A stretch of 64,000 nt of DNA from Cryomorphaceae bacterium (GTDB lineage Bacteria > Bacteroidota > Bacteroidia > Flavobacteriales_D > Crocinitomicaceae): NCBI GenBank assembly GCA_027485415.1, contig JAIXRC010000031.1, forward strand, positions 4,084-68,083, given 5' to 3'. The translations under genes and the position numbers were made by a program. Below the pieces are notes generated by a model. That model was not told where the DNA came from, did not search any database, and saw only the letters and a list, made by a program, of their open reading frames with translations. Shown piece by piece: positions 12,770 to 39,514 of the stretch. Each line of letters opens with the position of its first letter. The first letter of the stretch is position 1.

Positions 12770-12866
12770 GGTAAAATTTTCTTGCTAAAATAGCATTTTT
12801 ACCAAGATTGTTGAAATTAACGTTAAGGTAACCTACTGAAGAAGACTTTATTCCAAAAATTCCCAT

Positions 12867-12874
12867 TATTTTTG
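12867..12874 (+). promoter_or_regulatory. Bacteroidota -7 promoter motif TAttTTTG upstream of the LTD gene
   Basis: Exact TAnnTTTG match, 16 nt upstream of the ATG at 12891. Confidence 0.5.
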
Positions 12875-12890
12875 TTCAAAATTTGAATGC

Positions 12891-13949
12891 ATGAAACAAC
12901 TTTTTACCTTATTTCTCCTCTGTGCAACGGCTATTGCCACTGCGCAAAGCAATTGTTCTGATCTATTCATTTCTGAATACGTTGAAGGTTGGTCTAACAA
13001 TAAAGCCCTTGAGATTTATAACCCAACGAACCAGCCCATTAACTTGAGTGGTTATTTTGTTGTACGATATTCCAACGGTTCTTCCTCTGCAACCGTCGCC
13101 AACGCAGTACAATTGTCTGGAACAATAGGTGCTCACGATGTTTACGTTGCAGTGCTTGAAAAATTAGATACTGCTGGAACAGGTCAAGAGGCTCCTATTT
13201 GGGATTCGTTGCAAGTAAAGGCTGACGGATTTTATTGCCCTGTTTATAATACTTCGAATGCCTTTTATTGGAATGGCAACGATGCCGTGGTGCTTGCAAA
13301 GGGAACCTTACCTGCGAACCCTTCTGCCGTTATCAGCCCTGCAAACGTTCCTGGCTTTGCCTTGGTGGACATTTTCGGGAAAATTGGTGAAAACCCTGCC
13401 AACTCCACAGGTTCATCTGCCGGAAACGACGGAGCTTGGTCCACCACCTTTCCATACAACAACGGTCAAGGCGTATTGGTAACCAAAGACCACTCCATGT
13501 TACGCAAAGGCAGCATTCAAAAAGGCGTAACAACGCAGGTTGCGTTTTTCGACCCCTTGTTAGAATGGGATACCATTCCAGCGGTGATTGTTCGCTTAGA
13601 TCAAAACGGAGATACGCTTTTTGGGCAGAGCGGAAATCCAATTCTTGATGGTAATTGGAACTCGCTTGGAACGCATGAATGCCAATGCAATCCTGCCTCT
13701 ACTCAAACCCTTGAAGATATAAATTACTCGATTTATCCTAATCCTTCCTCCGGCACGTTCTACATTAACAATGCTACCGCGGTCAAAAGGCTTCAAGTAT
13801 TGGATATTTTCGGTAAAACGATTCTAACCAAGGAAGTTCATAAACAAAAAACAATTTCCGTCGATATCGATGAGCCAAGGGGAGTGTATTTCATGAAAAT
13901 CACCACCAAGGATGGTCATACCGACACTCGAAAAATCATTATTCGATAA
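12891..13949 (+). CDS. Lamin-tail-domain (LTD) protein with T9SS type A sorting domain
   Basis: 352-aa ORF with signal peptide. CSDLFISEYVEGWSNNKALEIYNPTNQPINLSGY is the LTD motif seen at the N-terminus of ExeM/NucH-type extracellular nucleases. C-terminal IYPNPSSGTFYI...GVYFMKITTKDGH is a T9SS CTD. Confidence 0.8.
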   Translation: MKQLFTLFLLCATAIATAQSNCSDLFISEYVEGWSNNKALEIYNPTNQPINLSGYFVVRYSNGSSSATVANAVQLSGTIGAHDVYVAVLEKLDTAGTGQEAPIWDSLQVKADGFYCPVYNTSNAFYWNGNDAVVLAKGTLPANPSAVISPANVPGFALVDIFGKIGENPANSTGSSAGNDGAWSTTFPYNNGQGVLVTKDHSMLRKGSIQKGVTTQVAFFDPLLEWDTIPAVIVRLDQNGDTLFGQSGNPILDGNWNSLGTHECQCNPASTQTLEDINYSIYPNPSSGTFYINNATAVKRLQVLDIFGKTILTKEVHKQKTISVDIDEPRGVYFMKITTKDGHTDTRKIIIR

Positions 13950-13956
13950 CTTACAT

Positions 13957-13981
13957 TCCCGCTAAGGCGGGATTTTTTTTT
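13957..13981 (+). terminator. Rho-independent terminator-like hairpin after the LTD gene
   Basis: cccgc-taag-gcggg stem-loop followed by a run of nine T. Lies 4 nt before the next start codon, so read-through is likely partial. Confidence 0.6.
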
Positions 13982-13984
13982 ACC

Positions 13985-16729
13985 ATGCGCTTACCATTTA
14001 TCCTAACGATTGTCTTATTTGGCCATTCGTTACTTGCACAAAAAGGTCAATTATCTGGGGTTATTTCCGAAGGGGCCTCCGGGCAAACTGTTGGCGGGGC
14101 CAAAATCGAGGTTAAATCAAGAAATACGGGCGCCGTAGTAAATCGCATGCTCTCCGAAAACAACGGTTCATACACGGTTCAGAACCTTCCCTATGGCGAT
14201 TATCGCATCACGGTTACGATGATTTCATTCGATACCGTTGTGCGAGACTTTAAACTGAACAAAGCGGAACTGGTGCTTAACCTCAACATGGCTGGAAGCC
14301 TAGAATTTGATGAAGTCAGGGTAATTGGTAACATCGTAAAGGACGGTCCAGTTCCCATTGCCGTTACGAAAATAAGCACCAAAAAAATACAAGAAGAATT
14401 AGGTTCAAGGGATTTGCCGATGTTGTTGAATGGAACAGCAGGCGTTTATGCCACCCAGTCAGGCGGTGGTGACGGTGACGCGCGCATCAATGTTCGGGGA
14501 TTTGACCAGCGCAACGTGGGAGTTATGATCGATGGAGTTCCTGTGAACGACATGGAAAACGGTTGGGTTTATTGGTCGAATTGGTTTGGTCTGGATGCCA
14601 TCACTTCTACCATGCAAGTTCAGCGAGGATTAGGTGCCACGAAAATTGCCATGCCCTCCGTCGGTGGTACCATCAACATCCTCACCCAAGGAATTGGCAA
14701 CAAAAAAGGAGGAAGTTTAAAGCAAGAATACGGTACCGGCAACATGATGCGAACGACTGCCTCTTACAACACAGGCATACTGAAAGGAGGATGGGGACTA
14801 ACCGCGGCACTCTCTTACAAGCAAGCAACAGGATGGGTGGAAGGAACACCCAGCCAAGGCTTTTTCGGTTATCTAAAAGTCTCGAAACAATTTGACCAAC
14901 ATTTACTCACCCTTTCCGCTTTTGCTGCTCCACAACAACACGGACAGCGTTCCTTTAGGCAACCCATTCAATACTGGAGCGAGGAAGAAGCACGGAACAA
15001 TGGAGCAACCATCGACACGAATGCAATTTTCAGTGATATGGGCCTACGCTACAACCAGCACTGGGGTTATAGAACCGTCAACGGAAAGGAAGAAGTCGTT
15101 TCTGAGCGCTTGAACTATTACAACAAACCGCAATTCACCCTGAAAGATTTTTGGAAGGTCAGTAAGAAATTGTCTATTTCGAACCTTGCTTATGCCTCCA
15201 TTGGACGTGGTGGAGGAACAGCGTTATTCAACTCATCGGCGATCATTCGTGACTCCAATAATTTGATTGATTGGGACACCATGACTTATTTCAACCAATA
15301 CAACCCGCTCTTTGGCACCCCCAACATCGACGCTCAATATTCTCCCACCGAAATTAAAAGTTCGCAAATCCTGTTATCCAGCGTGAACAACCACTTTTGG
15401 GTGGGATATTTAGGTCAAGTGAATTATGAGGTCAAGAAAGGATTCGAGTTTTCTGCCGGATTGGACGCTCGTTATTACCGAGGGTCGCATTATCAGGAAG
15501 TGAAGGATTTACTTGGTGGCGACTACTATGTCGATTTATCGGATAAAAATGCGGCAAGTCCCATGAAGCGTGTGGGAGATAAAATCGCGAAGAATCTGTT
15601 CAACGCAAACCGCGATGGCTTAGTGTCTTGGTTCGGGGCATTTTCTCAAGTTTCCTATGAATCCAAAACCGTAAGTGCCTTCGTAAACATAACAGGAATC
15701 GGAAATGGTTATCAAGGAATTGACTATTTCCAAAAACGCGAACTAAATCTTGGAGATACCATTCTACAATTTGGTTACGGCGATACGATTACCTATAACG
15801 GTCAAACCTACCACAGCTATTCTGAAGGTGTAGATTACGTAAAGACTCCGTGGAAATTCATCCCCGGCTTTACCTTTAAAGAGGGAGTATGCGTGAAGCT
15901 TAGCGAATTTTCAAGTGTGTTTTTAAACGTAGGTTATTTGAACCGTACTCCGATGTTTTCCAATGTAATTGACAATAATTACAACAAGTTTTTTGGGGTG
16001 ATTAACAATGAGAAAATCTTAGCAATCGAACAAGGTTTTTCCTATGCATCTCGTACTTTCGGTGTCAATATCAATGCCTATGCGACCAACTGGAAAAACA
16101 AACCATTTCCATATGGTGTAGCCGTTCCAGATCCAAATGACCCTACGGAAACCATTCGTGTAAACATCAACGGCATGGATGCCATCCACTTGGGAGGAGA
16201 AATAGACGTCGCATGGGAAATTCACAAAAAAGTTTCCACGGAATTCATGTTCTCGATGGGTGACTGGTACTGGAATTCATCAAAAACAATCGTCATACCT
16301 CAGTACGATTCCCTCGAATACACCTTCAACGCGGAAGGTGTTGGTGTAGGAGATGCCGCTCAAACAGCTCTCTCGGCAACGGTGCGTTATGAGCCCATCA
16401 AAAACCTGTATTTCAAAGGTCAGTTTCAGTATTTCGACCGCTATTTTTCCGATTTCAATCCCTTCTCGCTGCAAGGAGTTAACGGAGGACGGCAATCTTG
16501 GATCATGCCTTCGTATTCCTTGGTTAATTTTTACGCAGGATACCGGTTCAAAATTGGCGAAGACGCTTTAAACCTTTCCGCCAACATCATTAACCTATTG
16601 AACACCGTGTTTATCTCGGACGCTACGAATAACAACAACGGCAACAATCAGAACTTTGACGCAACTTCCGCTTCGGTCATGTTTGGTCAGGGCTTGCGAT
16701 TTAATGTATCTTTATCCTATCAATTTTAA
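13985..16729 (+). CDS. TonB-dependent receptor with N-terminal carboxypeptidase-regulatory-like domain (no SusD partner)
   Basis: 914-aa ORF with signal peptide. CarbopepD_reg-like region (GVISEGASGQTVGGAKIEVKS...YGDYRITV). Plug-like region (RVIGN...INVRGFDQRNVGVMIDGVPVND). Long beta-barrel ending in the terminal aromatic LSYQF. Confidence 0.85.
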   Translation: MRLPFILTIVLFGHSLLAQKGQLSGVISEGASGQTVGGAKIEVKSRNTGAVVNRMLSENNGSYTVQNLPYGDYRITVTMISFDTVVRDFKLNKAELVLNLNMAGSLEFDEVRVIGNIVKDGPVPIAVTKISTKKIQEELGSRDLPMLLNGTAGVYATQSGGGDGDARINVRGFDQRNVGVMIDGVPVNDMENGWVYWSNWFGLDAITSTMQVQRGLGATKIAMPSVGGTINILTQGIGNKKGGSLKQEYGTGNMMRTTASYNTGILKGGWGLTAALSYKQATGWVEGTPSQGFFGYLKVSKQFDQHLLTLSAFAAPQQHGQRSFRQPIQYWSEEEARNNGATIDTNAIFSDMGLRYNQHWGYRTVNGKEEVVSERLNYYNKPQFTLKDFWKVSKKLSISNLAYASIGRGGGTALFNSSAIIRDSNNLIDWDTMTYFNQYNPLFGTPNIDAQYSPTEIKSSQILLSSVNNHFWVGYLGQVNYEVKKGFEFSAGLDARYYRGSHYQEVKDLLGGDYYVDLSDKNAASPMKRVGDKIAKNLFNANRDGLVSWFGAFSQVSYESKTVSAFVNITGIGNGYQGIDYFQKRELNLGDTILQFGYGDTITYNGQTYHSYSEGVDYVKTPWKFIPGFTFKEGVCVKLSEFSSVFLNVGYLNRTPMFSNVIDNNYNKFFGVINNEKILAIEQGFSYASRTFGVNINAYATNWKNKPFPYGVAVPDPNDPTETIRVNINGMDAIHLGGEIDVAWEIHKKVSTEFMFSMGDWYWNSSKTIVIPQYDSLEYTFNAEGVGVGDAAQTALSATVRYEPIKNLYFKGQFQYFDRYFSDFNPFSLQGVNGGRQSWIMPSYSLVNFYAGYRFKIGEDALNLSANIINLLNTVFISDATNNNNGNNQNFDATSASVMFGQGLRFNVSLSYQF

Positions 16730-16731
16730 GT

Positions 16732-18999
16732 ATGAAACGAATTTTTACCCTCCTTGGAATCGCCACTAGCTTCGCATTTTCCTCTCAAACCATTCAGCAA
16801 GTGCGCAACATGTCCGTAGGAGCAACCGTTACCGTTCGAGGTGTGGTTTCTAACGGATCTGAACTCGGTGCCATTCGCTACCTGCAAGACGGAACGGCGG
16901 GAATTGCCTGCTACGGAAATAATTTGAGCAGTTTAACCACCGGTGACTCGGTTACGGCTACAGGGGTTTTGTTTGACTTCAGCGGATTATTGGAACTGTC
17001 TCCTACCAACAGTTTCACCGACCATGGCCCTGTTACTCCAAACGTACCTCAAGTCATTCCGATTACCAGTGCGGGGGAAGCATTGGAATCTCAACTGATT
17101 CGCATCGAGAACGTAACGTTTGTTCAAAGTGGAAATTTTGCAGGAGGCAACAGCACGGTACAAATCACCAACGGTGCAAACACCTTGGACGTTCGAATCA
17201 ACGGATCCACCAACATTGACGGAACCGCAATACCTGCAGGACCGGTAACGATTACGGGCCTAATGGGTCAGTTCAACGCGAACTATCAGGTTGTTCCGCG
17301 CAGTTTGGCAGACATTGTTCCTTACGTTGCACCTGCACGCGAAATCAATGTGAAAATCAACGGAACCACCGCTTTGAATAATACAACTTATGTTATCGGT
17401 AATACCGCTAACAATGTCATCACCATCGAAAACAGCGGGGTACAAACACTTACGGTAACAGGAACCTCCATTACAGGTGCCAATGCTGCCGATTACACTA
17501 CCAACCTGAATGCGACCACCGTTGCTGGATTGGGTTCCGGTAATTTTACCCTAACCTTTGCTCCTACTGGAAATGGTACACGCACTGCTACCCTAAGCAT
17601 CGCCAACGATGACAGCGATGAGAATCCTTACGTTATTACTTTATCGGCCGTTGGCCTTGACAACCTGGCCACGGAGCCTACCACAAATGCGAGCAACCTT
17701 ACCTTTTCCAACCTGCAAGCGTATACCTTAACCGGTGCCTACAATGCCGGAAACGGTGCGGAGAAATACTTGGTACTGTGGTCGAAAAACGGACCTGTTT
17801 CCGGATCCCCGATGGACGGAACTTCCTACCAGCGTGGAGATATCATTGGAAACGCAAAAGTAGCCTACAGCGGTAGCTCAACTACCTTTGTTCCTCGAGG
17901 TGTTCGTGCCAATCAACCGTACCACTTTGCCGTTTATGCATTCAACGGACCTGCGGGATTTGAAAACTATAAAACGACCAACCCAGCCATAGGAAATACC
18001 ACAACCACCGGCTTAAATGTTGGCAATTATTATGCGGGAATCAATGCACAAAGCCCCACTTTTTTAGGCGACCTATCGGCCTTAATTAACCCCCACACCT
18101 TCATCAGTTACTTCAATTATAAGCAAACCGTGATGAATCAATTTGAGGTTTCGGATACCACCAACGGTCAATCCTATGTGACTTGCGTTTATACCGGAGA
18201 AAACAAAGTATTTAATGACCCTTTCGATTGGAGCGCAGCCGGTTATTCTCGTGAACATACGTACTGTCACTCATGGATGCCAACCTTTCCTTGCGATAAT
18301 CCGGAAGAACCGGAATATACGGACCAACACAACCTCTACCCTACCAACTTGGCCAATGCCAACTCCTACCGAAGCAACCTACCCTTATTGGAGATCACTG
18401 GGAATGTACTATTTACGTTTCTCGAAGGAAGCGTTGGATATAACGGAAATCAAATGTGCTATGAGCCCAGAGATGCCCAAAAAGGAAATGCAGCCCGATC
18501 GATTTTTTACCAAGCGACCTGTTACAACGGCCAAAATGGATTGAATTGGAGTTTACCTGCCTACCAAGATCAAGAATCTTTGAAAAATTGGCACTTCAAC
18601 GATTTGCCGGATTCCTATGAAATTGCCCGTCAAGAATACATATTCAGCGTTCAAGGAAACCGAAATCCTTACATTGATTCGGTAGAATTCGTTTGCCATG
18701 TCAACTTTGCGAACATGAGTTATTTAGCAGAAAATTGCAACGTAGGTATCGAGGAACAATTGGCAGCGAACTTTTCGGTGTTTCCGGTTCCTAGCCGAAA
18801 CCAGGTCTTTGCACAGGTGAATAACACGAACATTACCGCTTACAGCGTAACAGACCTAAGCGGAAGGGTCATCATGGAATCTTCGAACCTCGAATTGCCG
18901 GTTTTAATCCTTAACGGGGCTCAACTGAACGCCGGAAAGTACCTACTTAGCGTTCAGACTCCTTTTGGAGTCGCTAAAAAAAGCTTTGTAATCGAATAA
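16732..18999 (+). CDS. Extracellular endonuclease I family nuclease with N-terminal OB-like and Ig-like modules and T9SS type A sorting domain
   Basis: 755-aa ORF. Endonuclease I motifs: YSREHTYCHSWMP, TDQHNLYPTNLANANSYRSNLP, KGNAARSIFYQ and QGNRNPYIDS. C-terminal FSVFPVPSRNQVFAQV...GKYLLSVQTPFG is a CTD. Starts 2 nt after the receptor stop. Confidence 0.85.
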   Translation: MKRIFTLLGIATSFAFSSQTIQQVRNMSVGATVTVRGVVSNGSELGAIRYLQDGTAGIACYGNNLSSLTTGDSVTATGVLFDFSGLLELSPTNSFTDHGPVTPNVPQVIPITSAGEALESQLIRIENVTFVQSGNFAGGNSTVQITNGANTLDVRINGSTNIDGTAIPAGPVTITGLMGQFNANYQVVPRSLADIVPYVAPAREINVKINGTTALNNTTYVIGNTANNVITIENSGVQTLTVTGTSITGANAADYTTNLNATTVAGLGSGNFTLTFAPTGNGTRTATLSIANDDSDENPYVITLSAVGLDNLATEPTTNASNLTFSNLQAYTLTGAYNAGNGAEKYLVLWSKNGPVSGSPMDGTSYQRGDIIGNAKVAYSGSSTTFVPRGVRANQPYHFAVYAFNGPAGFENYKTTNPAIGNTTTTGLNVGNYYAGINAQSPTFLGDLSALINPHTFISYFNYKQTVMNQFEVSDTTNGQSYVTCVYTGENKVFNDPFDWSAAGYSREHTYCHSWMPTFPCDNPEEPEYTDQHNLYPTNLANANSYRSNLPLLEITGNVLFTFLEGSVGYNGNQMCYEPRDAQKGNAARSIFYQATCYNGQNGLNWSLPAYQDQESLKNWHFNDLPDSYEIARQEYIFSVQGNRNPYIDSVEFVCHVNFANMSYLAENCNVGIEEQLAANFSVFPVPSRNQVFAQVNNTNITAYSVTDLSGRVIMESSNLELPVLILNGAQLNAGKYLLSVQTPFGVAKKSFVIE

Positions 19000-19703
19000 T
19001 GCGTTTGGTTTTGTTGGCAATTGGGTTGTTCGTGATTGGAGCATGCTCCCACAACATCAGTTTGCACAGCGGAACCAAAAACATGGGTTTAGATCAAAGC
19101 TATGCTTCGAAAGTGGAGATAAGTTCTATGATTCAACCCTATTCCGACAGTTTAAGTGCTGAAATGGGAGAGGTCATCGGCCGAGCCGATACGAGCTTTG
19201 ACTTGGCCTACCCCAACTCGAATTTAATGAATTGGGCGGCAGACGCATTACTGCAACAGGAAACGCAAGCCGTAAAAATGCGAGAACCGGTGGTAGTACT
19301 TCTCAATGCCGGAGGGCTCAGATCAAGCATCAACCGCGGAGAGATTACCGTGGGAGATCTCTACAAGCTCATGCCCTTCGACAATGTGGTGGCTTGGGTT
19401 CGCTTGCCCGTGGAACGAATTTCCGAAATAGAAAAGAACCTGAGCCAACAGGCGAAAGGCGTTGCCTTATCCAATGCGCGCTTTGAAAAAGGCAAGCTAA
19501 CGGTAAGCAACTTGTTACCAGAGCATACCCACATAACCTTCATCACCTCGGATTACCTAGCCTTTGGTGGCGACAAAATGACCTTTTTCCTGCAACCGGA
19601 GTCAGTGAATATTAGCAGACGTAACATGCGGGACGTATTCATTCAAGCGGTGAAACAGCAGGGAACCCTTACAAATCGAACCGAAAAACGCTACATTCCA
19701 TGA
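18999..19703 (+). CDS. 5'-nucleotidase C-terminal (substrate-binding) domain lipoprotein
   Basis: 234-aa ORF. Lipobox-like LFVIGAC. LLNAGGLRSSINRGEITVGDLYKLMPFDNVV and TSDYLAFGGD match the UshA-type C-terminal domain. The ATG overlaps the preceding TAA (TAATG). Confidence 0.75.
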   Translation: MRLVLLAIGLFVIGACSHNISLHSGTKNMGLDQSYASKVEISSMIQPYSDSLSAEMGEVIGRADTSFDLAYPNSNLMNWAADALLQQETQAVKMREPVVVLLNAGGLRSSINRGEITVGDLYKLMPFDNVVAWVRLPVERISEIEKNLSQQAKGVALSNARFEKGKLTVSNLLPEHTHITFITSDYLAFGGDKMTFFLQPESVNISRRNMRDVFIQAVKQQGTLTNRTEKRYIP

Positions 19704-20596
19704 ACCGCAGGCGATTTTTAGGAACCACAGGACTGGCGACCTTGGGCGTTTTAAGCGGAAGCTTGGACCTTCGGGCTCAAACCTTGGCAAAGGGTAAAAA
19801 ACTAACCATCCTCCACACCAACGATACGCATTCGAACATCGATCCATTTCCCATGTCGCATGCGAAGTACCCTGGAATGGGTGGCGTAGCCAAAAGAGCT
19901 GCGTTGATTGAAAAAATCCGCGCAGAAGAGGAACACGTGTTGTTGTTGGATTCCGGTGACATCTTTCAAGGAACGCCTTACTTCAACAAATACCATGGTG
20001 TACTCGAAATGAAACTCATGAGCGCCATGCAATACGATGCTGCGACCATGGGCAACCACGATTTTGACATCGGATTAGATGGGTTTAAAAAGGCACAGCA
20101 ACATGCCAATTTTCCCTTTCTATGCAGCAACTACGATTTTAAGAATACGCTCCTCGAAGGCGCAACACTGCCTCATTTAATCGTGAAGAAAGGTGGGCTT
20201 CGGATTGGATTATTTGGCATTGGAGTTAACCTTGAGGGATTAGCAGGAAAGGCTAATTACGGAGGAATGAACTACCTCGACCCCGTTCAAGTAGCCAACG
20301 ATACAGCGAAGTACCTGAAAGAAAAAAACTGTGATCTCATCGTATGCTTATCGCATTTAGGCTTTGAATATGCTTCGAATCAAATATCGGATAAGGTATT
20401 GGCATCCCAAAGCAGCAATATACACTTCATTTTAGGGGGACATACCCACACCTTCTTAGAAAAGCCCTTGCTTACAGAAAACCGCGATAAAAAGCCGGTA
20501 TTAATCAACCAAACAGGATGGGCAGGCTTATTCCTTGGAAGGATCGATATTGATTTTCAAAAAGCTATTTTCAGCCATGAAATGATGGTCGTTTAA
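19700..20596 (+). CDS. Metallophosphoesterase (5'-nucleotidase N-terminal catalytic domain) with Tat-type signal
   Basis: 298-aa ORF. Twin-arginine leader MNRRRFLGTTGLATLGV. Calcineurin-like motifs ILHTNDTHS, DSGDIFQGT, GNHDFD and GGHTH. ATGA overlap with the upstream gene. Confidence 0.85.
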   Translation: MNRRRFLGTTGLATLGVLSGSLDLRAQTLAKGKKLTILHTNDTHSNIDPFPMSHAKYPGMGGVAKRAALIEKIRAEEEHVLLLDSGDIFQGTPYFNKYHGVLEMKLMSAMQYDAATMGNHDFDIGLDGFKKAQQHANFPFLCSNYDFKNTLLEGATLPHLIVKKGGLRIGLFGIGVNLEGLAGKANYGGMNYLDPVQVANDTAKYLKEKNCDLIVCLSHLGFEYASNQISDKVLASQSSNIHFILGGHTHTFLEKPLLTENRDKKPVLINQTGWAGLFLGRIDIDFQKAIFSHEMMVV

Positions 20597-20605
20597 GGGA
20601 GTTGT

Positions 20606-21535
20606 TTATTTTTCAACTTTTTGAAAATCGTTTATTTCGTCAACATTTAACTCCATTTTGCCTTTACGATTAATGCGCGGCAGTATTGGTTCAAATTTTG
20701 CATCCATTATAAGGTCTTTATATGTGTAGGAATGTCTTGAATGCACGGTTTGTTCATAGGTATCATTAATCGACTTGATAAAAACCATGATCTCCACGTC
20801 ATTCTTTTCATAATCTTCCAAAGAAAAACCGAAAAGAGGACTTTCACTATGTATTGGATGAACAATCGTCCAAGTTAACGCGAGAAAACTAATTTTCCGA
20901 AGTTCTAAATCCAAGGGAATAAACACCCTTTTACCCGATTCCCAATCGATCATCGATAATATAACTTGTGCTTCCGCCTCAATTAGTTCGTTCTGCTTTG
21001 GATTGGTGATACGAAACATCAATCCTTTCAACGTTTTGTAGGGAGAAATCAGAACGTTGCGGCTGTACATCAGAAAACTTCGAGGCCTTGAAAAACGCGC
21101 ATACAAAATCCCCGTGGCTAGCGCAAAGCCCATTAAACCTAAGGCAGCCTCAACTGTTGCTAAGGCTCCCGCAATATTGCCTTTAGGAAAAATATGACCA
21201 TACCCAACCGTGGTTAAGGTTTGAGCGCTAAAGAAAAACAACTGCATGAAATCATTGAAGGGAGTTGAGGTTTGGACATTCCCAAAATGATCAATGCCTA
21301 TCCAATAGTAAAGGCTTGCAAATAGAAGGTTTATCAGTAAAAAACCGAGTATTACCAATATTAAAAACTTGGTGCGAGGCATCGTAATTAAGGCATGATA
21401 TCCATCGAAATTTTGCCAAAATTTTCGGCCTTTTCGCCGGACATTCACTGAACCATCGTTGTTAATATATCGAGAATTGGTGGCGTAGTTTTTCGTTCCA
21501 AAACCTATTTCGTCCGTCGATTTATCCTTTTCCAT
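20606..21535 (-). CDS. Inward-rectifier-type potassium channel (KirBac-like)
   Basis: 309-aa ORF. Two TM helices flank the selectivity filter TTVGYGH. A cytoplasmic Ig-like Kir C-terminal domain follows. Confidence 0.85.
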   Translation of the reverse strand: MEKDKSTDEIGFGTKNYATNSRYINNDGSVNVRRKGRKFWQNFDGYHALITMPRTKFLILVILGFLLINLLFASLYYWIGIDHFGNVQTSTPFNDFMQLFFFSAQTLTTVGYGHIFPKGNIAGALATVEAALGLMGFALATGILYARFSRPRSFLMYSRNVLISPYKTLKGLMFRITNPKQNELIEAEAQVILSMIDWESGKRVFIPLDLELRKISFLALTWTIVHPIHSESPLFGFSLEDYEKNDVEIMVFIKSINDTYEQTVHSRHSYTYKDLIMDAKFEPILPRINRKGKMELNVDEINDFQKVEK

Positions 21536-21673
21536 GCCTTAAAAATAATGGATTTTACGGAGTCTGAACGGTTCCAAACAAAACAACATTAATTCAAAAA
21601 AAGTACCCGGTTAAACTTCCGTTAAATGTCGAATTGAGATCCCACTCATGGCATTTTAAAAGGATAAAGTCCC

Positions 21674-21681
21674 TAATTTTG
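21674..21681 (+). promoter_or_regulatory. Bacteroidota -7 promoter motif TAatTTTG upstream of phoD
   Basis: Exact TAnnTTTG match, 20 nt upstream of the TTG start at 21702. Confidence 0.45.
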
Positions 21682-21701
21682 ATACAACAAACCTACTCAC
21701 C

Positions 21702-23507
21702 TTGAAAATCAAACTCTTAGCCGCAACCACGCTTATTCTTTTGGGCCAATTTAAGGCTCAGACCAGCGTTACCCCTCAAGAGTGCATCGCACCGTTTTAC
21801 CATGGCGTGGCCTCAGGCGACCCCTTGAGCGATCGCGTAATTATCTGGACACGGGTTACTCCAGTGGATTATGGCCAAACATTAACCGGTACCTACCAGG
21901 TAGCCACTGATGATCAATTTACCAATGTGGTGGCCAACGGTAGTTTTAGTACGGATTCCACCAAAGACTTTACCGTAAAAATCGATGTAACAGGACTTAA
22001 TCCCAACACCTTTTACTACTACGAATTCGAACACAACGGGGCCTACAGTTTGGTCGGAAGAACCAAAACACTGCCCCTTGGAAATGTAAGTAATATGCGC
22101 CTTGCTGTCGTTTCTTGTGCCAGTTTAGAATCTGGGTATTTTAATTCCTACGATGCCATTGCTCAGCGCAACGATGTGGATGCAGTGCTCATGCTTGGCG
22201 ATTACATCTACGAATACGAAAGCCAAGGATTTGGCCCAAATGCCAATGTGGATCGAACATGGGAGCCCGCCGTTGAGATAACAGAACTGAACGAATACCG
22301 TTTGAGGTATAATTCGTACCGATTGGATTATGCCTTACGCAAATTACACCAAAACTTTCCGTGGATCTGCATTTGGGATGACCACGAAACAGCGAACGAT
22401 GCTTACACCGGGGGTGCGGGAAACCACCAAGGCAACGAAGGCCCGTGGAACCAACGCATGGAAGCAGGGAAACGCGCCTATTTTGAATGGATTCCCATTC
22501 GACCGAAAGCTCCGGGAAACCAGGAGATTTTTAGGACCTTTGAACTGGGGGACCTTGCCAAAATCATCATGCTCGATACGCGTTTGGAGGGAAGGGAAGA
22601 ACAACTGGGCGCGAACGATCCGAACTTTACAGACACGAGCAGAACCCTATTGGGAACACCGCAATTGAATTGGTTTAAAAACGAACTGAGTACCACGACC
22701 CAGCCATGGAAAATCATAGGAAATCAAGTCATGATAGGAGCCGTTGAAATTTTAGGAACCCCCATTAATACCGACTCTTGGGACGGTTATCCAGCAGAAA
22801 GGCAGAAATTGTTCGACCACCTTTCGACCAACAACATCGACAATACGGTCGTGCTAACTGGCGACATTCATACCAGCTGGGCTTTGGACCTGAAAAATGG
22901 GAATATTCCGGTAGGAGTTGAAATGGTCACACCCAGTGTTACTTCACCGGGATCACCGATTAACTTATCCGCTTTAATAACCGTTCAAAATCCGCACATC
23001 AAATACGTAGAACTCACCAAAAAAGGGTTCATTTTGGTGGATATCACGCCTCAACAAGTTCAGGGCGATTGGTATAATGTCAATACCATTGATCAAATGG
23101 ATGCTTCCAACAGCTGCGTTAAATCCTACGTTACGAATGCGGGCAGCAATGTGCTAACCTTAGCCAATGTCCCAGCAACAGGTCATGGCGCGTTTCCGCA
23201 AGCCCTTGCAGGTCCTTGCAACCGATTCTATGTTGGTTTGAATGAAGCACCCAAAGGCGTAATTTTGGGCTTGTATCCTAACCCAAGTGCCGACTTGATT
23301 AAACTGCAAACGCATCAGATTCCGCTCGAAACAATTTACGCTGTTGCATCGGATGGAACTCGGATTCCTCTTCAACATGCCACAAGCACTTGGGAAAACG
23401 GCACCACCATCACCTCGGTAGATATTCGTTCACTGATGCCAGGAAATTATTTCTTGGTTTTTGGGAGTGACACGAATCGTCATACTCTACCCATCATTAA
23501 ACAGTAA
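21702..23507 (+). CDS. phoD: Alkaline phosphatase D with T9SS type A sorting domain
   Basis: 601-aa ORF (TTG start per ORF track). PhoD N-terminal signature FYHGVASGDPLSDRVIIWTRV. Metallophosphatase core (GDYIYE, WDDHE, VVLTGDIHTSW). C-terminal LYPNPSADLIKL...GNYFLVFGSD is a CTD. Confidence 0.9.
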   Translation: MKIKLLAATTLILLGQFKAQTSVTPQECIAPFYHGVASGDPLSDRVIIWTRVTPVDYGQTLTGTYQVATDDQFTNVVANGSFSTDSTKDFTVKIDVTGLNPNTFYYYEFEHNGAYSLVGRTKTLPLGNVSNMRLAVVSCASLESGYFNSYDAIAQRNDVDAVLMLGDYIYEYESQGFGPNANVDRTWEPAVEITELNEYRLRYNSYRLDYALRKLHQNFPWICIWDDHETANDAYTGGAGNHQGNEGPWNQRMEAGKRAYFEWIPIRPKAPGNQEIFRTFELGDLAKIIMLDTRLEGREEQLGANDPNFTDTSRTLLGTPQLNWFKNELSTTTQPWKIIGNQVMIGAVEILGTPINTDSWDGYPAERQKLFDHLSTNNIDNTVVLTGDIHTSWALDLKNGNIPVGVEMVTPSVTSPGSPINLSALITVQNPHIKYVELTKKGFILVDITPQQVQGDWYNVNTIDQMDASNSCVKSYVTNAGSNVLTLANVPATGHGAFPQALAGPCNRFYVGLNEAPKGVILGLYPNPSADLIKLQTHQIPLETIYAVASDGTRIPLQHATSTWENGTTITSVDIRSLMPGNYFLVFGSDTNRHTLPIIKQ

Positions 23508-23510
23508 AGA

Positions 23511-26500
23511 ATGCAACGGTTCATTGCTGTTTTGTTCCTTTGTTATGTCGGATATTTTTACTGCCAACTACCATGTGGAGGAAGCACCTTTACCTTAACC
23601 AACTCCCAATTGGGTACCGTGTCTTCCAATGTCAGCAGCTACACCTATTCAATGGCAACCTTCAACATGCCGTTCAACGTATTCGTTCAAAAAACTTCGG
23701 GAAACGGGCCTAATTTTTACCCGTACGGCGCCAACTCACTTTGGGTAGGAAAGGACAACAACGTGAACTTGGATTCTGTCGTGGTGGAAATCACGTTTAC
23801 GGGTGAAGTATACGGAGTTATGTTGGATTTCGGGGCCATCAACAACAATGTTGACGGAGAAGAACAAATTCAACGGATTTATCCTAAATTATCCAACGGA
23901 CAACTGCTGACCCAAGGGGTAACATACACCTACCAACCCGGTGTACCCAGTGGTACTGTTGGTGGAACCTATTTTGTCAACAGTTCGAAAACCATTAGAG
24001 CCTATTCGGGAAATGCAGACGATGGACGGTTGATTATTTCGGCATCCACGCCTTTCAAAAAAATCCGTTTCACCCAACGTGAAATCAGTGCTTTGAGCGT
24101 ATCTGGTCCCAATGGCATTTTGGTAAAACGCATTTCCTATTGTCCGGTCATTCCCGACATTGCCGTTTCGGTACAAAATATTAACCAATCCATGAATTCC
24201 ACGTCATCGTTCGGTACCGTAGGAATTGGAAATAGCGTTACAAAAACCTTTCAAATCTCAAACCAAGGAACGGGTAACTTAACCCTTAACTCATTTAATC
24301 TCACCAACGGAGTCCACTGGCAAATCTTGAACAATCCAAGCCTAACCGTTGCTCCATTGGATACCGTTTTCCTAAATGTAGCCTTCGCACCCACCGCTTC
24401 GGGGAATTTAAGCGACCAAATAACCTTCACATCCAACGATTGGAACGAAGCCAGTTACCCCATCAATCTAAGTGGAATCGGCGTTGCATCTCAGCTGCAA
24501 CTGCAACACCTGGGACAAAGCATTCCCGCCTCAGGGACCATTAACGTCGACAGCACCTTGTTGGGAACTTCCTTAACGGATTCGGTTTATTTGTTCAACA
24601 ACGGACTGGGCACTTTAGCTATTAACGGAGTGCAAATTTCTGGCTCCTCCTTTGCGTGGGTTCCTTCGGTCATGCCCATCAGCCTTGCCCCCGGCAGCGG
24701 TCAATACCTTCATTTTACTTTTACCCCTACAGCGGGAGGTCCTTTAACGGGGTCTCTTCAACTGCAATCCAACGATCCAAACAGTCCGCAGTCTTGGGTA
24801 TTGAACGGTTATGGAATCAATCCCTTTGCTGCAACCCCAGAAATACAAGTAATTTATAATTCTTCGGATTTTGCCAACGGAGCGGTATTAAATTTTGGAG
24901 GGTGTACGGCTGGCAACACGCTCACCCTTCCGATTACGATCAAAAACATCGGCCTTGCAAACCTCCTATTGTCCAATCCCCAAAGCTCGAGTGCCATGTT
25001 CTCTTTTGGAAGCTCTATTGCAGGTACATTGGCCCCCGGTGCATCGATCAATACCACCGTGCAATTTACGCCAAGTATTATTGGCCTAACGAATGGAACT
25101 CTTTATTTTACGACCAATGACCTGGATGAGAATCCCTTTGTTTTGCACTTGGTGGGAACAGGAATGGCACCAAACCTGAGCAATTGTCAGGGTTGTAACC
25201 ATCTCAAAGTCAATTCTAATCCTATGCACAAAGCTGAATGGGTGGATAACCTTCCGATTTTGGAGTGGCAACACGAGGAAGGTAAGGGTATCGCTTATTA
25301 CAAAGTTGAACTTTGGAAAATCAGCAATGCAAACAATACGGAAGTTGCAGTGGCCATAAACGGAAACCTCATCAATACCGTTAACGCACCGAATTCTGTG
25401 AGCCATGCAAAGTTGGTAGTAACTATACCTCTACTCTACAAAACCTTGTACAGCTGGCGTGTGACGGCTTTTACTACAAACCACCTCCCTTTGGCCTGTT
25501 TCAAGCGCCAATTTACCACCATTCCAAAACCTAATCCTTTGCCCTTAACTTGTTCGGGGGTGCCCGCTGGCGTAGATCCCTTCGGAACCAAATTAGGTGC
25601 AGTCAACAACGTACCTGTTTATAAAAACGGTGGGTGCGAAAACGGAATTTACAATAAATCAAGTACGTTGATCAGTAGCCAAAGCGGCTGGACTTACGGG
25701 TGGCAATGTGTGGAATTACCTGCTCGGTATTACTTTACGCGGTACCGTATCAATATTCAAGGGGGCAACGGCAAGGATTACTTTGATGTTACAGGAAACC
25801 GAAAAGGATTGCGGCAAATGACCAATGGACTTACAACTTCTGCACCAAAACCCGAGGACATGATTACGTTCATGCGAGCTGATCCAACTTCAGCCGGACA
25901 TGTCTCGGTAGTTAAAAACGTTAGTCCCTCCATAAGCCTTAACGTTGCCAATTATACCATAAAAACATTCCAACAAAATTGGGGGAGCAATGTCGCGCAG
26001 CATTTGAATTATTCCATTGCACTAAAATTCCAAGCTGGAAAATGGAAAGCGACCAGTACCTACCCTACCACGAGAGGTTGGGTTCGAGCGGTGCCTGAAA
26101 TTGTAACTCCCGGATCAACGAACAGCATACCAACCATTAGCACTACCACGCCCACCTTCACATGGATCAAGCATAATAATATCAAAGGATATAATGTTCG
26201 TTTGTACCGCCTTAACGGCACATGCTACCAACAGGTTGGAAATACGATCAGCATCACAGGAAACCAAATCAACGGGCTTGGATTCCCTGCATTAACGCCC
26301 GGTGCAACCTACAAATGGACCGTAGAAAATATATACTACAACGTGGCCCCCATTGTTTTTAATCAGAGTACGAGCATCTCCAGTTCTGCGGTAAAATCCG
26401 TATTAAGCGACAATTACTATTTCAAAGTAAGCGCCAGTGCTCAAGGGGGCAATGTTGGTCCGGTTGCTGTTAGCGGTGGTGCGGTGGCAAATCTCTTCCT

Positions 26501-27830
26501 ACAGAGCGTTGCATCGCCCCTCAACGGTACCTCGATTTTCATTAAAAACCACAACGATTGGGTATACCTCGACGAAACCCATGGAAACGGAGCCACTGAC
26601 ATATTGCAGGAATTTTCTCCAAAAATAGGTGATTCAATCGCCCTCATCCGGCCAGGTTTTTATCCGATGACCTACGCATTGAGCAGCACCAATATTGCGG
26701 ACAAAATGAAGGTTCCAATGATTGAGCAGTCCCCTGCCATCAAATTTTCAGTGAGCCATGAACATCGATTGGGTCAGACCTTATTAAAAATTGAAGGCGC
26801 CCATTGGAAAGGCTTTCGCATGGCACAAGAGGGTGACTTCAGCTCAGAAATTTGGCCTTCGAATACGCTTGAAATTCCCGTTCGCTTGAATCCTGGCATG
26901 AACTATTTTCAGTTCTTGGTTTTCAACGACCATGACACCCTTTTAATCTCCGACAAATGGTTATTTACCGATCCGAATAATCCCACTCGAAAAATTCAAT
27001 TGGTGAATCGCAACAACCATGAAGTCAGCATATACATCGATGGGGATTACTACCAACACGTAAGTGCCAACACCTTGCTTACATTACCTGAAGGGGCCTA
27101 CACTTTAACCCTAACATCGCCGGGATACAAGCTTGTACGTTTTATAGTGGAAAGCGACACCTTATTGGTGTATCAACCAGAGCTTCTCCCAAGTGAACGC
27201 ATCGATACGGTGTTCGAATCGAACCCAGCGACGGCTCATTACCTCGGGGCGGGATTGAGCTTTCACTCCTCAGCAAAAGAAAACGTGAACCTTCGCATTA
27301 CCGAAGTTGCTGAAATCGTTGAACTCAATCCCTGGAGCGAAGTCCTTGAAATCTCAACAAACCCGTGTTGCTGGGATGCTGCTTGGTTCATAGACAAATG
27401 CCAACAACCTGAACGCCTTGCCTTGTGGGTTTCAGATGGGGTTCATACCAAGGTTTTGGAGTCCGAAGCTTGGGGAGATAGCATTGTGTATGATCCTGAA
27501 TATCAAATTCTAAAATTGAAGCATTGGTCGGCTTCGTGGAAGGTAGCCTTGATTACCTCACCAAGGAATTCCATGAATGGATTGAGTTCAAATTTCTCTG
27601 TACTTCCGAATCCCAGTTCTGGCGAAAAGGTGGTGATAGCGCAAGGTTTAGGCTTAGCAACGTGTTGGTTCAGAGCCATCGATGGGACAGGAAAACTGGT
27701 GGTTTCCGAACAACTTACCTTCGACATGGGAGCAACTACCCTGAACCTGCAAGGACTTTCACCGGGTGCTTACGTATTTCAATTTGAAACTTCCCAAGGG
27801 ACTGAACAGCTTAGATTTGTTCGTCAGTAG
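23511..27830 (+). CDS. Very large T9SS cargo protein with ASH/HYDIN-like Ig repeats and an internal CHAP (cysteine/histidine peptidoglycan amidase-peptidase) domain
   Basis: 1439-aa ORF starting 3 nt after the phoD stop. About four repeats of the type FGTVGIGNSVTKTFQISNQGTGNLTL...ITFTSND. CHAP-like core GWQCVELPARYYF...PKPEDMITF...SAGHVSVVKNV...FQQNWG around nt 25600-26100. C-terminal FSVLPNPSSGEKVV...GAYVFQFETSQG is a CTD. Confidence 0.75.
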   Translation: MQRFIAVLFLCYVGYFYCQLPCGGSTFTLTNSQLGTVSSNVSSYTYSMATFNMPFNVFVQKTSGNGPNFYPYGANSLWVGKDNNVNLDSVVVEITFTGEVYGVMLDFGAINNNVDGEEQIQRIYPKLSNGQLLTQGVTYTYQPGVPSGTVGGTYFVNSSKTIRAYSGNADDGRLIISASTPFKKIRFTQREISALSVSGPNGILVKRISYCPVIPDIAVSVQNINQSMNSTSSFGTVGIGNSVTKTFQISNQGTGNLTLNSFNLTNGVHWQILNNPSLTVAPLDTVFLNVAFAPTASGNLSDQITFTSNDWNEASYPINLSGIGVASQLQLQHLGQSIPASGTINVDSTLLGTSLTDSVYLFNNGLGTLAINGVQISGSSFAWVPSVMPISLAPGSGQYLHFTFTPTAGGPLTGSLQLQSNDPNSPQSWVLNGYGINPFAATPEIQVIYNSSDFANGAVLNFGGCTAGNTLTLPITIKNIGLANLLLSNPQSSSAMFSFGSSIAGTLAPGASINTTVQFTPSIIGLTNGTLYFTTNDLDENPFVLHLVGTGMAPNLSNCQGCNHLKVNSNPMHKAEWVDNLPILEWQHEEGKGIAYYKVELWKISNANNTEVAVAINGNLINTVNAPNSVSHAKLVVTIPLLYKTLYSWRVTAFTTNHLPLACFKRQFTTIPKPNPLPLTCSGVPAGVDPFGTKLGAVNNVPVYKNGGCENGIYNKSSTLISSQSGWTYGWQCVELPARYYFTRYRINIQGGNGKDYFDVTGNRKGLRQMTNGLTTSAPKPEDMITFMRADPTSAGHVSVVKNVSPSISLNVANYTIKTFQQNWGSNVAQHLNYSIALKFQAGKWKATSTYPTTRGWVRAVPEIVTPGSTNSIPTISTTTPTFTWIKHNNIKGYNVRLYRLNGTCYQQVGNTISITGNQINGLGFPALTPGATYKWTVENIYYNVAPIVFNQSTSISSSAVKSVLSDNYYFKVSASAQGGNVGPVAVSGGAVANLFLQSVASPLNGTSIFIKNHNDWVYLDETHGNGATDILQEFSPKIGDSIALIRPGFYPMTYALSSTNIADKMKVPMIEQSPAIKFSVSHEHRLGQTLLKIEGAHWKGFRMAQEGDFSSEIWPSNTLEIPVRLNPGMNYFQFLVFNDHDTLLISDKWLFTDPNNPTRKIQLVNRNNHEVSIYIDGDYYQHVSANTLLTLPEGAYTLTLTSPGYKLVRFIVESDTLLVYQPELLPSERIDTVFESNPATAHYLGAGLSFHSSAKENVNLRITEVAEIVELNPWSEVLEISTNPCCWDAAWFIDKCQQPERLALWVSDGVHTKVLESEAWGDSIVYDPEYQILKLKHWSASWKVALITSPRNSMNGLSSNFSVLPNPSSGEKVVIAQGLGLATCWFRAIDGTGKLVVSEQLTFDMGATTLNLQGLSPGAYVFQFETSQGTEQLRFVRQ

Positions 27831-39200: not shown

Positions 39201-39514
39201 CGGTAGAAATGAACGTTACCGATACTTTGGGGTGTATTGGAAAATCGTCGCAGACACTTCAGATTACTGAGGGCAGCATACAAGTGGGAATTCAACCCAA
39301 CCCTTTCCAAAGCAATCCAACCGTTGTGCATAATTTGCCGAGCGATAAAGCCTTCAACTTTATACTTTATGATGCGGCTGGGAGAAAACTCCAAGCATAT
39401 GATTCTCCCGCATCACCCTTTACCCTTGAAACCCGGGGCATGGCCCAAGGCACCTATTGGTTGAAGTGTGTTTTTGAAGGGGAAACCATTACTCAAAGTT
39501 TGATCCGTTTATAA
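36209..39514 (+). CDS. Multidomain T9SS cargo: Cys-rich GDGICC module, PPC-like domain, glycine-rich (ALK/LTK-type Gly_rich) domain, CotH kinase-like domain, PKD domain, T9SS CTD
   Basis: 1101-aa ORF. YPNETTWNL...FDIHDSYGDGICCGYGLGSY module. FSCTGSPQTFTAPTSGNFTVEAWGAQGG...LSIYVGGEG followed by long GGGG tracts (Gly_rich pattern). CotH-like IFLDGNYIGVYTLTEKVKRDKDRLDI...GPPWDYDRA. PKD-like YLWDFGDQ...HVYAVPGIYTVEMNVTD. C-terminal IQPNPFQSNPTV...GTYWLKCVFEGE is a CTD. Confidence 0.8.
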   Translation: MKKNYRFLLLLCVLFITHRTLAQCPAGEWPLEITIVPDSYPNETTWNLFSNGTEIAQGTYLSDTVCVDSSSCMRFDIHDSYGDGICCGYGLGSYVITLNGNQVASGGEFATIASHSFNCGPGTICENPLNANLGLNTSPNGQRFFEFTPDSTGIYSFSTCGITTCDTRLWIYNTCQNVDYSGSSNGAMYYNDNNLNCGEQADLEVLLAAGVPYIVRIDYGQNLGNVQTFSCTGSPQTFTAPTSGNFTVEAWGAQGGDDGQTGAKGGYSKGTKYLNAGETLSIYVGGEGANCAAAGGGGWNGGGNAGDVGCSGGGGGASDVRYGGNALGDRILVAGGGGGTGCCGTPAGEGGGLSGINGSGLGGTQNAGGAGQGAGSLGQGGHKSGDGGGGGGGYYGGGASYNDDGGGGGSSYIGGVMNGVTIAGNATMPNLNGGTMTGNTGNGWVRVSWADTACAGNIPFMITYVGAMSSVLPIVKLTTLNTPINNNVKVPVKMEIIDHGLGQLNYSNDTIYSYEGNILAEWQGFTGPGYPKKNYDFDLIDAAGNKIDTSLMGLPAENDWIFKAEYLDNTLLKNSVAYYFSRKMGRYAPRTKHCEIFLDGNYIGVYTLTEKVKRDKDRLDIAKMTSTDTVGSALTGGYIIEMNINGAPAAWNSAYPPINNATSPHAVEFKYVYPKADSILPVQGNYIKTFVDSFENALNGVNFTNDSLGYRAWIDVSTFIDFLIVNEFSMNYDSYGRSTYMYKEKDTDGGKLCIGPPWDYDRAMASPPTSGWVWQNCHPYWPFPFWWSKMYTDSVYRHELACRWFSLRENELSNGNFMAFIDSTANLLYQGPAERNFAIWQSLNGVPYPQQVLNLKLFMYQRLTWIDETLTPFGAELPLVQIPEDTTVCVGITYTAPFNPLYSYNWKPGPETPEITLTNPGPYVLEVSDAFGCERNLPMNVGISAPDTTFNHLHVDAEYVFAGNNGNSSQYLWDFGDQTLWGNGQQVSHVYAVPGIYTVEMNVTDTLGCIGKSSQTLQITEGSIQVGIQPNPFQSNPTVVHNLPSDKAFNFILYDAAGRKLQAYDSPASPFTLETRGMAQGTYWLKCVFEGETITQSLIRL

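Follow-up and report, generated by a model that had tools for sequence, protein, structure and literature searches.

How might Bacteroidota of lakes and sediments bring extracellular DNA across the outer membrane? In such habitats this DNA makes up a large reserve of phosphorus, nitrogen and genes, and Bacteroidota are among its main consumers. To our knowledge, the only characterised outer-membrane DNA route in the phylum is the one formed by DdbCD in gut strains and by its counterparts in the bird pathogen Riemerella. The question is raised by a 64,000-nucleotide stretch of a Cryomorphaceae bacterium genome (GenBank assembly GCA_027485415.1, contig JAIXRC010000031.1, positions 4,084 to 68,083; hereafter the window, with position 1 its first letter), in which a gene for a TonB-dependent receptor lies among genes for secreted nucleic-acid and phosphate enzymes. 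The original prediction, made from the letters of the window, was that six genes around this receptor form a nucleic-acid counterpart of a polysaccharide utilisation locus (PUL), beginning with a lamin-tail domain (LTD) protein and ending with a PhoD phosphatase. We analysed which of these genes belong together and what they are likely to act on. On balance, positions 12891–20596 probably constitute a single-copy DNA-utilisation locus of the DdbCD type, adapted to the type IX secretion system (T9SS), in which DNA would be captured by an OB-fold module, cut by an endonuclease, imported through the TonB-dependent receptor and dephosphorylated in the periplasm.

The reference system is ddbABCDEF, a locus that Bacteroides thetaiotaomicron needs to deplete exogenous DNA (Sharan et al., PNAS 2025, PMC12478041; bioRxiv 10.1101/2025.03.18.642099). 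The ddb locus has the organisation of a PUL. It encodes the TonB-dependent transporter DdbC and, next to it, DdbD, a DUF5689 protein with a predicted fold resembling the double-stranded DNA (dsDNA)-binding domain of p202 (4JBM), which is modelled as the substrate-binding partner of the transporter (PMC12478041). The central idea of the original prediction had therefore already been published for gut Bacteroidales. In Riemerella anatipestifer, an adjacent pair comprising the outer-membrane protein RA0C_RS04915 (with a CarboxypepD_reg domain) and RA0C_RS04920 (DUF5689 and DUF5017) is essential for natural transformation (Huang et al. 2021, PMC8459023).

The receptor lies in a conserved gene unit

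All six predicted open reading frames (ORFs) are present with the boundaries first proposed, and their domains agree with Pfam and NCBIfam. The first five lie on the forward strand and encode an LTD protein with a T9SS C-terminal domain (CTD) (12891–13949; LTD PF00932, 53 bits), the TonB-dependent receptor (13985–16729; CarboxypepD_reg and Plug), a fusion of DUF5689 with endonuclease I (16732–18999; DUF5689, choice-of-anchor D, Endonuclease_1 and T9SS CTD), a 5_nucleotid_C lipoprotein (18999–19703) and a Metallophos protein corresponding to the N-terminal domain of 5′-nucleotidase (19700–20596). Together these five genes, 12891–20596, make up the unit. The three tight junctions noted at the outset are real: 2 nt separate the receptor stop from the fusion start (16729/16732), a TAATG overlap (18997–19001) joins the fusion and 5_nucleotid_C genes, and an ATGA overlap (19700–19703) joins the latter to the Metallophos gene. 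A 35-nt spacer separates the LTD and receptor genes. Spacing is comparably tight in relative loci, where the overlap of the nucleotidase pair is also kept.

Relatives of the receptor were collected from one genome per species; at least 601 were found, and the best 80 were analysed as related loci, in which neighbours were counted by tblastn with the window proteins among the loci with room for the neighbour in question. A DUF5689/nuclease gene lay directly downstream of the receptor in 60/60 loci. The LTD gene lay directly upstream in 70/72 by a strict test, and the remaining two (L072 and L084) had an LTD match somewhat further upstream. By the same count, PhoD was adjacent to the locus once in 47 (L029) and the Kir-type channel gene never (0/47), which places PhoD, originally counted as a member, outside the conserved unit. 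Because the order of LTD, receptor and nuclease genes is kept so widely in relatives, it is beyond chance. The LTD gene is a stable stand-alone gene in those 70 loci, and not the product of a recent split of an ExeM-type nuclease.

Pfam scans of 33 loci, all outside the Crocinitomicaceae-type group, defined the unit further. The downstream protein was a 700–860-aa nuclease with a T9SS CTD in 33/33, and the upstream protein was LTD plus CTD in each of the 32 with upstream sequence. The nuclease domain itself was endonuclease I in 14 loci and a double PLDc_2 (Nuc-type) domain in 19. Beyond the triad lay housekeeping genes with no relation to it (Mfd, IF-2, PNPase and others). Selection has thus kept LTD-CTD, receptor and DUF5689-nuclease-CTD as a unit, and the replacement of one nuclease by another while the scaffold stays constant strongly indicates that selection acts on the cleavage of nucleic acid.

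Several relative loci carry further genes. Three endonuclease I proteins, one of them EEP-fused, follow in a row after the fusion gene in L084 (Bacteroidales UBA5342); L096 has an extra S1/P1 nuclease, and L067 and L068 each have an extra, separate endonuclease I after the fusion gene. An upstream DUF5017+DUF5689+CTD protein, reminiscent of the Riemerella partner, occurs in L068 (with LTD) and L084. In L155 (G205:C1), the order is DUF5689-PLD nuclease, LTD, receptor and then a sigma-54-dependent response regulator, a possible lead to regulation.

The nuclease carries a predicted tandem OB module

The fusion protein (755 aa) has a signal peptide, is T9SS cargo by its CTD and is the product of the genome's only DUF5689 gene, which is also its only Endonuclease_1 gene. 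Its four parts, all encoded on the forward strand, are a DUF5689 module (16786–17331; residues 19–200), a choice-of-anchor D/ASH Ig-like spacer domain (17374–17622; residues 215–297; Pfam/NCBIfam), the endonuclease I catalytic region (18232–18681; residues 501–650; Pfam, 72 bits) and a T9SS type A CTD (18778–18996; residues 683–754; TIGR04183, 26 bits, cut-off 23). The first of these matched DUF5689 (PF18942) at 51.6 bits against a cut-off of 28.6, and homologues of the module matched profile positions 26–217.

Residues 19–205, folded with a 43-homologue alignment (A2), gave a model of two OB barrels with a pLDDT of 94 and a pTM of 0.87; the OB-like N-terminal module of the original prediction is thus DUF5689, a tandem OB fold. 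A Foldseek search of the PDB with this model placed HIN-200 domains with dsDNA on top (p204, 5z7d, E = 1e-4; MNDA, 8i6k, TM 0.42; p202, 4jbm, TM 0.44, E = 1.3e-3), followed by Teb1, RPA and POT1. In a search independent of Foldseek, each OB half scored Z 11–12 against nucleic-acid-binding OB folds. From the model, and by analogy with DdbD and SusD, we propose that the module may be the DNA-binding and receptor-docking part of the system.

The catalytic domain aligned to Vvn (1OUP; E = 1.3e-4). Residues R507-E508-H509, D531, N544, K584-G585, A588-R589, Q641, N643-R644-N645-P646 and D649 were invariant in 36/36 homologues, and N544 aligned with the Asn of the 1OUP stretch EVNGDRSN. E508-H509 and N544 correspond to the catalytic EH...N motif of the beta-beta-alpha-metal site in Vvn. 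With this catalytic motif in place, the sequence assigns the domain to endonuclease I (Vvn/EndA, PF04231).

Receptor architecture and relatives

The receptor (914 aa) consists of a signal peptide, a CarboxypepD_reg extension (residues 23–113; PF13620, 42.5 bits, cut-off 32.3), a Plug domain (residues 123–228; PF07715, 50.7 bits) and a barrel, with a TonB-box-like DEVRVIG at residues 109–115. At the level of architecture it appears DdbC-like. No SusC-family model was among its NCBIfam matches at E ≤ 0.01, and the 11 proteins encoded between 8024 and 27830 included none with a SusD-family Pfam match. The receptor is therefore 'SusD-less', as it had been called, in that a SusD-family gene is missing, but it is not without a candidate partner, which is the DUF5689 module fused to the nuclease. 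A prediction of the complex between receptor residues 115–914 (alignment A3) and the tandem OB module (A2), made without control runs, scored 0.00 twice with a mark of 0.32 and is neutral on binding. A siderophore, haem or B12 receptor was also considered and rejected: plug-region matches to such families were weak and far below family cut-offs, and the nuclease context is constant.

The receptor was matched in 24/24 other genomes of the genus. The best 80 of the at least 601 relatives came from Crocinitomicaceae, other Flavobacteriales, Saprospiraceae, Bacteroidales, Lentimicrobiaceae and Prolixibacteraceae metagenome-assembled genomes, and no Bacteroides or Riemerella record was among these 80. 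Among 401 evenly drawn Bacteroidota genomes, 84 had a relative at E ≤ 1e-80, and an LTD neighbour was present in 7 of the 30 best loci of this draw, the source genome (G000) included. Distant relatives (25–32% identity) lie in other gene contexts; a type I phosphodiesterase/nucleotide pyrophosphatase adjoins one in 5 of 18 loci examined, suggesting phosphoester substrates.

In L145, L156, L157, L158 and L159 (genomes G218, G375, G290, G119 and G423), receptor relatives with 29–32% identity are followed by a type I phosphodiesterase/nucleotide pyrophosphatase (PF01663) of ~400–430 aa, often with a small ferredoxin next and, in two, a second CarboxypepD_reg barrel nearby. These loci may represent a sister system for phosphoester uptake. 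Unannotated proteins beside two distant receptor relatives, in L144 (554 aa) and L146 (543 aa), did not resemble the tandem-OB profile (hhalign probabilities of 0.3 and 0.1, respectively). A second, shorter receptor paralogue (~800 aa, ~40% identity, without the first ~100 residues; G020:C24, G023:C56, G003:C82 and G137:C8) is encoded by some other members of the source genus but is absent from G000.

The LTD gene is followed by a conserved hairpin

The LTD protein (352 aa) comprises a signal peptide, a lamin-tail Ig-like domain (about residues 19–230) and a T9SS type A CTD (residues 281–352), and its model (pLDDT 90.4) shows an Ig-like domain and the CTD. Structure searches matched the N-terminal part to lamin A/C Ig folds and the CTD to T9SS substrate CTDs in SprA translocon structures (TMt 0.75–0.80), and an enzyme fold was not seen in them. 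Residues C22, H262, C264 and C266 vary little or not at all across 58 sequences (alignment A4), the latter three forming an H-x-C-x-C motif directly before the CTD linker of these LTD partner proteins; going by this conservation, they could form a metal site or disulfides.

Between the LTD and receptor genes lies a terminator-like hairpin on the forward strand (13957–13972) that, with the nine T residues that follow it (to 13981), ends 3 nt before the receptor ATG. It has 6 pairs (5 of them G-C), a loop of 4 and a dG of −11.5 kcal/mol, and is the strongest terminator-like hairpin of the region. The LTD-to-receptor spacer is structured in 41/52 loci (z < −2; median z −3.56), the receptor-to-nuclease spacer in 5/20 (median z −0.13), and a cruder test, a hairpin plus a run of at least 5 T, identified 32/66 LTD-to-receptor spacers. 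Since hairpin sequences vary among lineages, what these loci conserve after the LTD gene is a hairpin structure. In the window, its position leaves no space for a promoter before the receptor gene, which must therefore be transcribed by read-through or from within the LTD gene, and we propose that the hairpin acts as a leaky terminator or an attenuator and so fixes the ratio of LTD protein to receptor.

Upstream of the LTD gene, on the same strand, a block made up of GATTGTTGAAATTAAC (12806–12821) and GGTAACC (12827–12833) is a candidate regulator site. In right-aligned spacers of 18 loci, it was shared with the closest relative locus, L051, in which the remaining spacer differs; scans of the whole genome for the block gave nothing informative. 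A second element, TATTTTTG (12867–12874, forward strand), lies 24 nt ahead of the LTD ATG and has equivalents at −26/−27 in L051 and L045. It matches the −7 promoter element of Bacteroidota, TAnnTTTG. A sigma-70 promoter scan found fewer sites (14) than in shuffled sequences (19.5) and is thus uninformative for this phylum.

A split 5′-nucleotidase is appended in one lineage

The last two genes of the unit encode the halves of a 5′-nucleotidase, with the C-domain gene first and with different export routes. The 5_nucleotid_C lipoprotein (234 aa) has the lipobox IGAC at residues 13–16, no acidic residues past the Cys and GGLR at 105. The Metallophos protein (298 aa) has the twin-arginine translocation (Tat) motif RRRFLG at residues 3–8, and the genome encodes TatC; the protein also contains NDTHS (41), DSGD (84), GNHDFD (118) and GGHTH (246). 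These four motifs and GGLR are named after those of the UshA family. Like UshA-type 5′-nucleotidases, the pair combines a metallophosphatase domain bearing DxH/GD/GNH(D/E)/GHxH motifs with a 5_nucleotid_C domain. Unlike in those enzymes, which are one chain, the domains here are two proteins in reverse order, one with a lipoprotein signal and the other with a Tat signal.

The pair was present, in the same C-domain-first arrangement, in 18 of 19 Crocinitomicaceae-type loci (L039 being without it) and in 0 of 31 loci outside this group, and is therefore not part of the ancestral system. A 5′-nucleotidase thus does belong to the locus in this family, as proposed, but as a lineage-specific addition.

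Habitat and transcripts

Besides one possible source run, 13 DNA runs from 11 studies contained at least half of the sampled sequence words; 12 were labelled freshwater or lake water and one 'metagenome'. Six RNA runs contained 0.15–0.27 of the sampled words. Assembled contigs of four RNA libraries (X15–X18) were aligned to the locus, and the LTD gene was covered in three (X15, X17 and X18), in X18 by a contig spanning 12923–13953 with 2 differences. One X17 contig (13631–14139) runs from the LTD gene across its stop codon and the hairpin into the receptor gene, and another (18301–19387; 0 differences) bridges the nuclease and 5_nucleotid_C genes. An X18 contig bridges the 5_nucleotid_C and Metallophos genes, and X16 contigs cover part of the receptor gene. 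In most RNA runs, much of the receptor gene was left uncovered, as were the 5′ two-thirds of the nuclease gene; contigs cannot show absence or level.

DNA feeding and alternative roles

We propose the following sequence of events. The T9SS would export the LTD protein and the DUF5689-endonuclease I fusion to, or near, the cell surface, where they may be anchored. The tandem-OB (HIN-like) module of the fusion would bind DNA while sitting at the mouth of the receptor, by analogy with DdbD and SusD, and the tethered endonuclease I domain would cut the bound nucleic acid into short 5′-phosphorylated pieces, which the receptor would import with energy from TonB. In the periplasm, the two-piece 5′-nucleotidase, with its Tat-exported dimetal catalytic part and its substrate-binding lipoprotein, would release phosphate and nucleosides for uptake once oligonucleotides had been reduced to mononucleotides. 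The LTD protein would serve as a third and obligatory part at the surface, perhaps as a substrate holder resembling SusE/F, and the leaky terminator hairpin may allow it to be made in excess over the receptor. Conserved gene order and a nuclease motif kept in 36/36 homologues uphold the core of the original prediction, which was a PUL-like nucleic-acid locus with a non-SusC receptor, a secreted nuclease and a periplasmic 5′-nucleotidase. Related enzyme sets have been described, without mention of TonB, in sediment DNA degraders, which include Bacteroidota with extracellular nucleases and periplasmic nucleotidases (Wasmund et al.). A tie to phosphorus is supported by Flavobacterium johnsoniae, in which phosphate depletion induces nucleases that combine LTD and endonuclease I (Lidbury et al., PMC8115612).

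Several observations weigh against this proposal. Assignment to the DdbCD type draws on domain architecture, Pfam families and predicted fold, and the TM-scores between the OB module and HIN domains are modest (0.37–0.44), which a different angle between the two barrels would explain. OB folds also bind ligands besides DNA. The locus encodes no enzyme that would convert oligonucleotides to mononucleotides, and none of the 31 loci that are not of the Crocinitomicaceae type has the nucleotidase pair. The RNA-library contigs show presence, not level, and may include DNA carry-over. Finally, DNA is a poor sole source of carbon, nitrogen or phosphorus for B. thetaiotaomicron (Sharan et al., PMC12478041), so that scavenging for growth is not established even in the model system.

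The main alternative, absent from the original prediction, is still live although we regard it as unlikely: that the triad carries out the outer-membrane DNA-uptake step of natural transformation, with the nucleotidases clearing the degraded strand. Here, the OB module would capture DNA, the nuclease would trim it or make it single-stranded, and the receptor would pass long DNA to a periplasmic ComEA-like protein and ComEC for recombination. Precedents against a purely nutritional role come from R. anatipestifer, in which the homologues serve natural transformation (PMC8459023) and TonB mutants transform poorly (PMC8383284), and Sharan et al. argue for shared ancestry of DNA-utilisation and transformation functions (PMC12478041). 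The genome analysed here also encodes ComEC, DprA and a 295-aa ORF with a C-terminal HHH_3 domain (ComEA-like), which likewise tells against feeding alone. However, ComEC, DprA and HHH_3 also matched in most control genomes, including non-competent B. thetaiotaomicron, and are therefore non-discriminating; no competence genes lie in the 64-kb window; and DUF5017 (PF16409), part of the Riemerella partner, had no match in the window's fusion protein. A non-specific endonuclease fused to a DNA-binding module and coupled to nucleotidases points to destruction of DNA, not to its preservation.

Feeding and transformation are mutually compatible, and a combined version is conceivable, if doubtful. 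The triad would be a general three-part DNA-intake machine in the outer membrane of T9SS-bearing Bacteroidota that serves both feeding and competence, in which a surface-tethered 'hand' of tandem OB folds, joined to either endonuclease I or PLD as an exchangeable nuclease, passes oligonucleotides or single strands through the receptor barrel, the LTD protein is obligatory and over-produced through the leaky terminator, and downstream genes decide the fate of the DNA.

We consider it improbable that the locus is the six-gene pipeline of the original prediction, under Pho control and including PhoD, with a receptor that lacks a partner, an LTD protein as the DNA binder and a split ExeM. In favour of that version, a PhoD with a T9SS CTD lies 1.1 kb downstream, and also occurs in relative L029; the LTD region matches the N terminus of the ExeM model (E = 4e-17); and nucleases of Flavobacterium johnsoniae that combine LTD and endonuclease I are induced by phosphate depletion (Lidbury et al., PMC8115612). 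Yet, with PhoD adjacent in 1/47 loci, Kir in 0/47 and LTD stand-alone in 70/72, and with the DUF5689 module as a candidate receptor partner, neither the membership nor the division of labour in that version fits the relatives. PhoD is also set apart in the window by a convergent gene, its own upstream region and a different gene tightly after it. We rate this version low because PhoD is not conserved with the locus. As for phosphate control, a literature search, judged by titles and the starts of abstracts, yielded no Bacteroidota Pho box; the PhoU family was not found in the genome (completeness 100); and the sole PstS-like (PBP_like_2) match (G000:C122:57350-60489) lies in an exbD/tonB-like cluster. 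A non-nutritional role, in remodelling of the extracellular-DNA matrix of biofilms or escape from DNA traps with the receptor importing something else, recalls the first description of the B. thetaiotaomicron ddbF homologue as a DNase for bile-dependent biofilm formation (cited in Sharan et al., PMC12478041) but leaves the 60/60 linkage of receptor, DNA-binding module and nuclease and the coupled nucleotidases unexplained, and is very improbable.

Neighbouring genes

A Kir-type inward-rectifier K+ channel gene (20606–21535, reverse strand; IRK, IRK_C and Ion_trans_2) is wedged between the nucleotidase and PhoD genes. It had been described as divergent, which is true with respect to the PhoD gene, but it is convergent with the nucleotidase gene, from which 9 nt separate it. 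The PhoD gene (21702–23507, forward strand; Pfam) has a TTG start, and its product carries a Sec-type signal without a twin arginine and a T9SS CTD. After 3 nt follows a gene for a 1439-aa protein (23511–27830) with three choice-of-anchor D domains, CHAP, PEGA and a CTD; because of this tight junction, PhoD apparently belongs to a separate unit, and the two genes recur together in relative L029. Upstream of PhoD, at 21609–21626, is a direct repeat, GGTTAAACTTCCGTTAAA, that could be a response-regulator site. The pattern GGTTAAA-N4-6-GTTAAA has two occurrences in the 3.39-Mb genome, the other being at C35:16808, and a scan for GTTAA-type direct repeats gave nothing interpretable. Upstream of the PstS-like gene are a proline-rich TonB-like gene and two small ORFs that look ExbD-like (named from their translations).

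Elsewhere in the window, 36209–39514 (forward strand) encodes a 1101-aa protein with a CotH kinase domain, an ALK/LTK glycine-rich domain and PKD, and 51372–53360 (reverse strand) encodes a fusion of lycopene cyclase with beta-carotene 15,15'-dioxygenase (a retinal-synthesis fusion).

Relation to known systems

The locus interpreted here as a T9SS-adapted DNA-utilisation system shares with ddb a TonB-dependent transporter gene followed by a DUF5689 gene, secreted nucleases in the locus, a PUL-like logic and a HIN/p202-like DUF5689 fold. It differs in the fusion of DUF5689 to endonuclease I, in the export of its surface proteins as T9SS cargo with CTDs, where those of ddb are lipoproteins, and in having a stand-alone LTD protein before the receptor and an appended split periplasmic 5′-nucleotidase; its host is a freshwater Crocinitomicaceae-like bacterium, whereas ddb belongs to gut Bacteroidales. 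With RA0C_RS04915/RA0C_RS04920 it has in common adjacent CarboxypepD_reg outer-membrane and DUF5689 proteins and the order Flavobacteriales, but the Riemerella partner carries DUF5017, lacks a nuclease domain and acts in transformation (PMC8459023), whereas here there is a nuclease fusion with nucleotidases.

Comparison with SusC/SusD PULs and the Flavobacterium PusCD (PMC8115612) shows the same series of surface binder, surface hydrolase, TonB-dependent import and periplasmic hydrolase, and a receptor with a CarboxypepD_reg extension. The present locus, however, has no SusC-family match and no SusD-family gene, and its candidate partner is a tandem OB protein rather than a TPR-like SusD. ExeM/NucH and F. 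johnsoniae EndA1/EndA2 likewise combine LTD with a nuclease that acts on extracellular DNA, endonuclease I in the case of EndA1/2. Those proteins carry both domains on a single chain, and a dedicated receptor for them has not been described; here LTD is separate, and the nuclease carries DUF5689 in its place. Against the ExeM/NucH model NF033680, the LTD protein scored 61 bits (cut-off 1300), over model positions 13–121 only.

A literature search returned no paper that joins LTD, TonB-dependent and nuclease in Bacteroidetes, and the words 'lamin', 'endonuclease' and 'T9SS' or 'type IX' had no occurrence in either version of Sharan et al. (PMC12478041). DUF5689 itself was mentioned in three papers of the literature searched. 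The kind of system is thus known, and the variant is undescribed in that literature. What is new is that binder and nuclease are fused, that export is by the T9SS, that an LTD partner and the hairpin after its gene are constant, that the nuclease can be exchanged and that a split nucleotidase is appended.

If the assignment is correct, the locus would show the DdbCD principle as it is built in environmental lineages that bear this secretion system, with a two-piece periplasmic nucleotidase as the addition of one freshwater family. Its parts bear on what passes through these receptors, and on whether feeding and transformation may share one gate.

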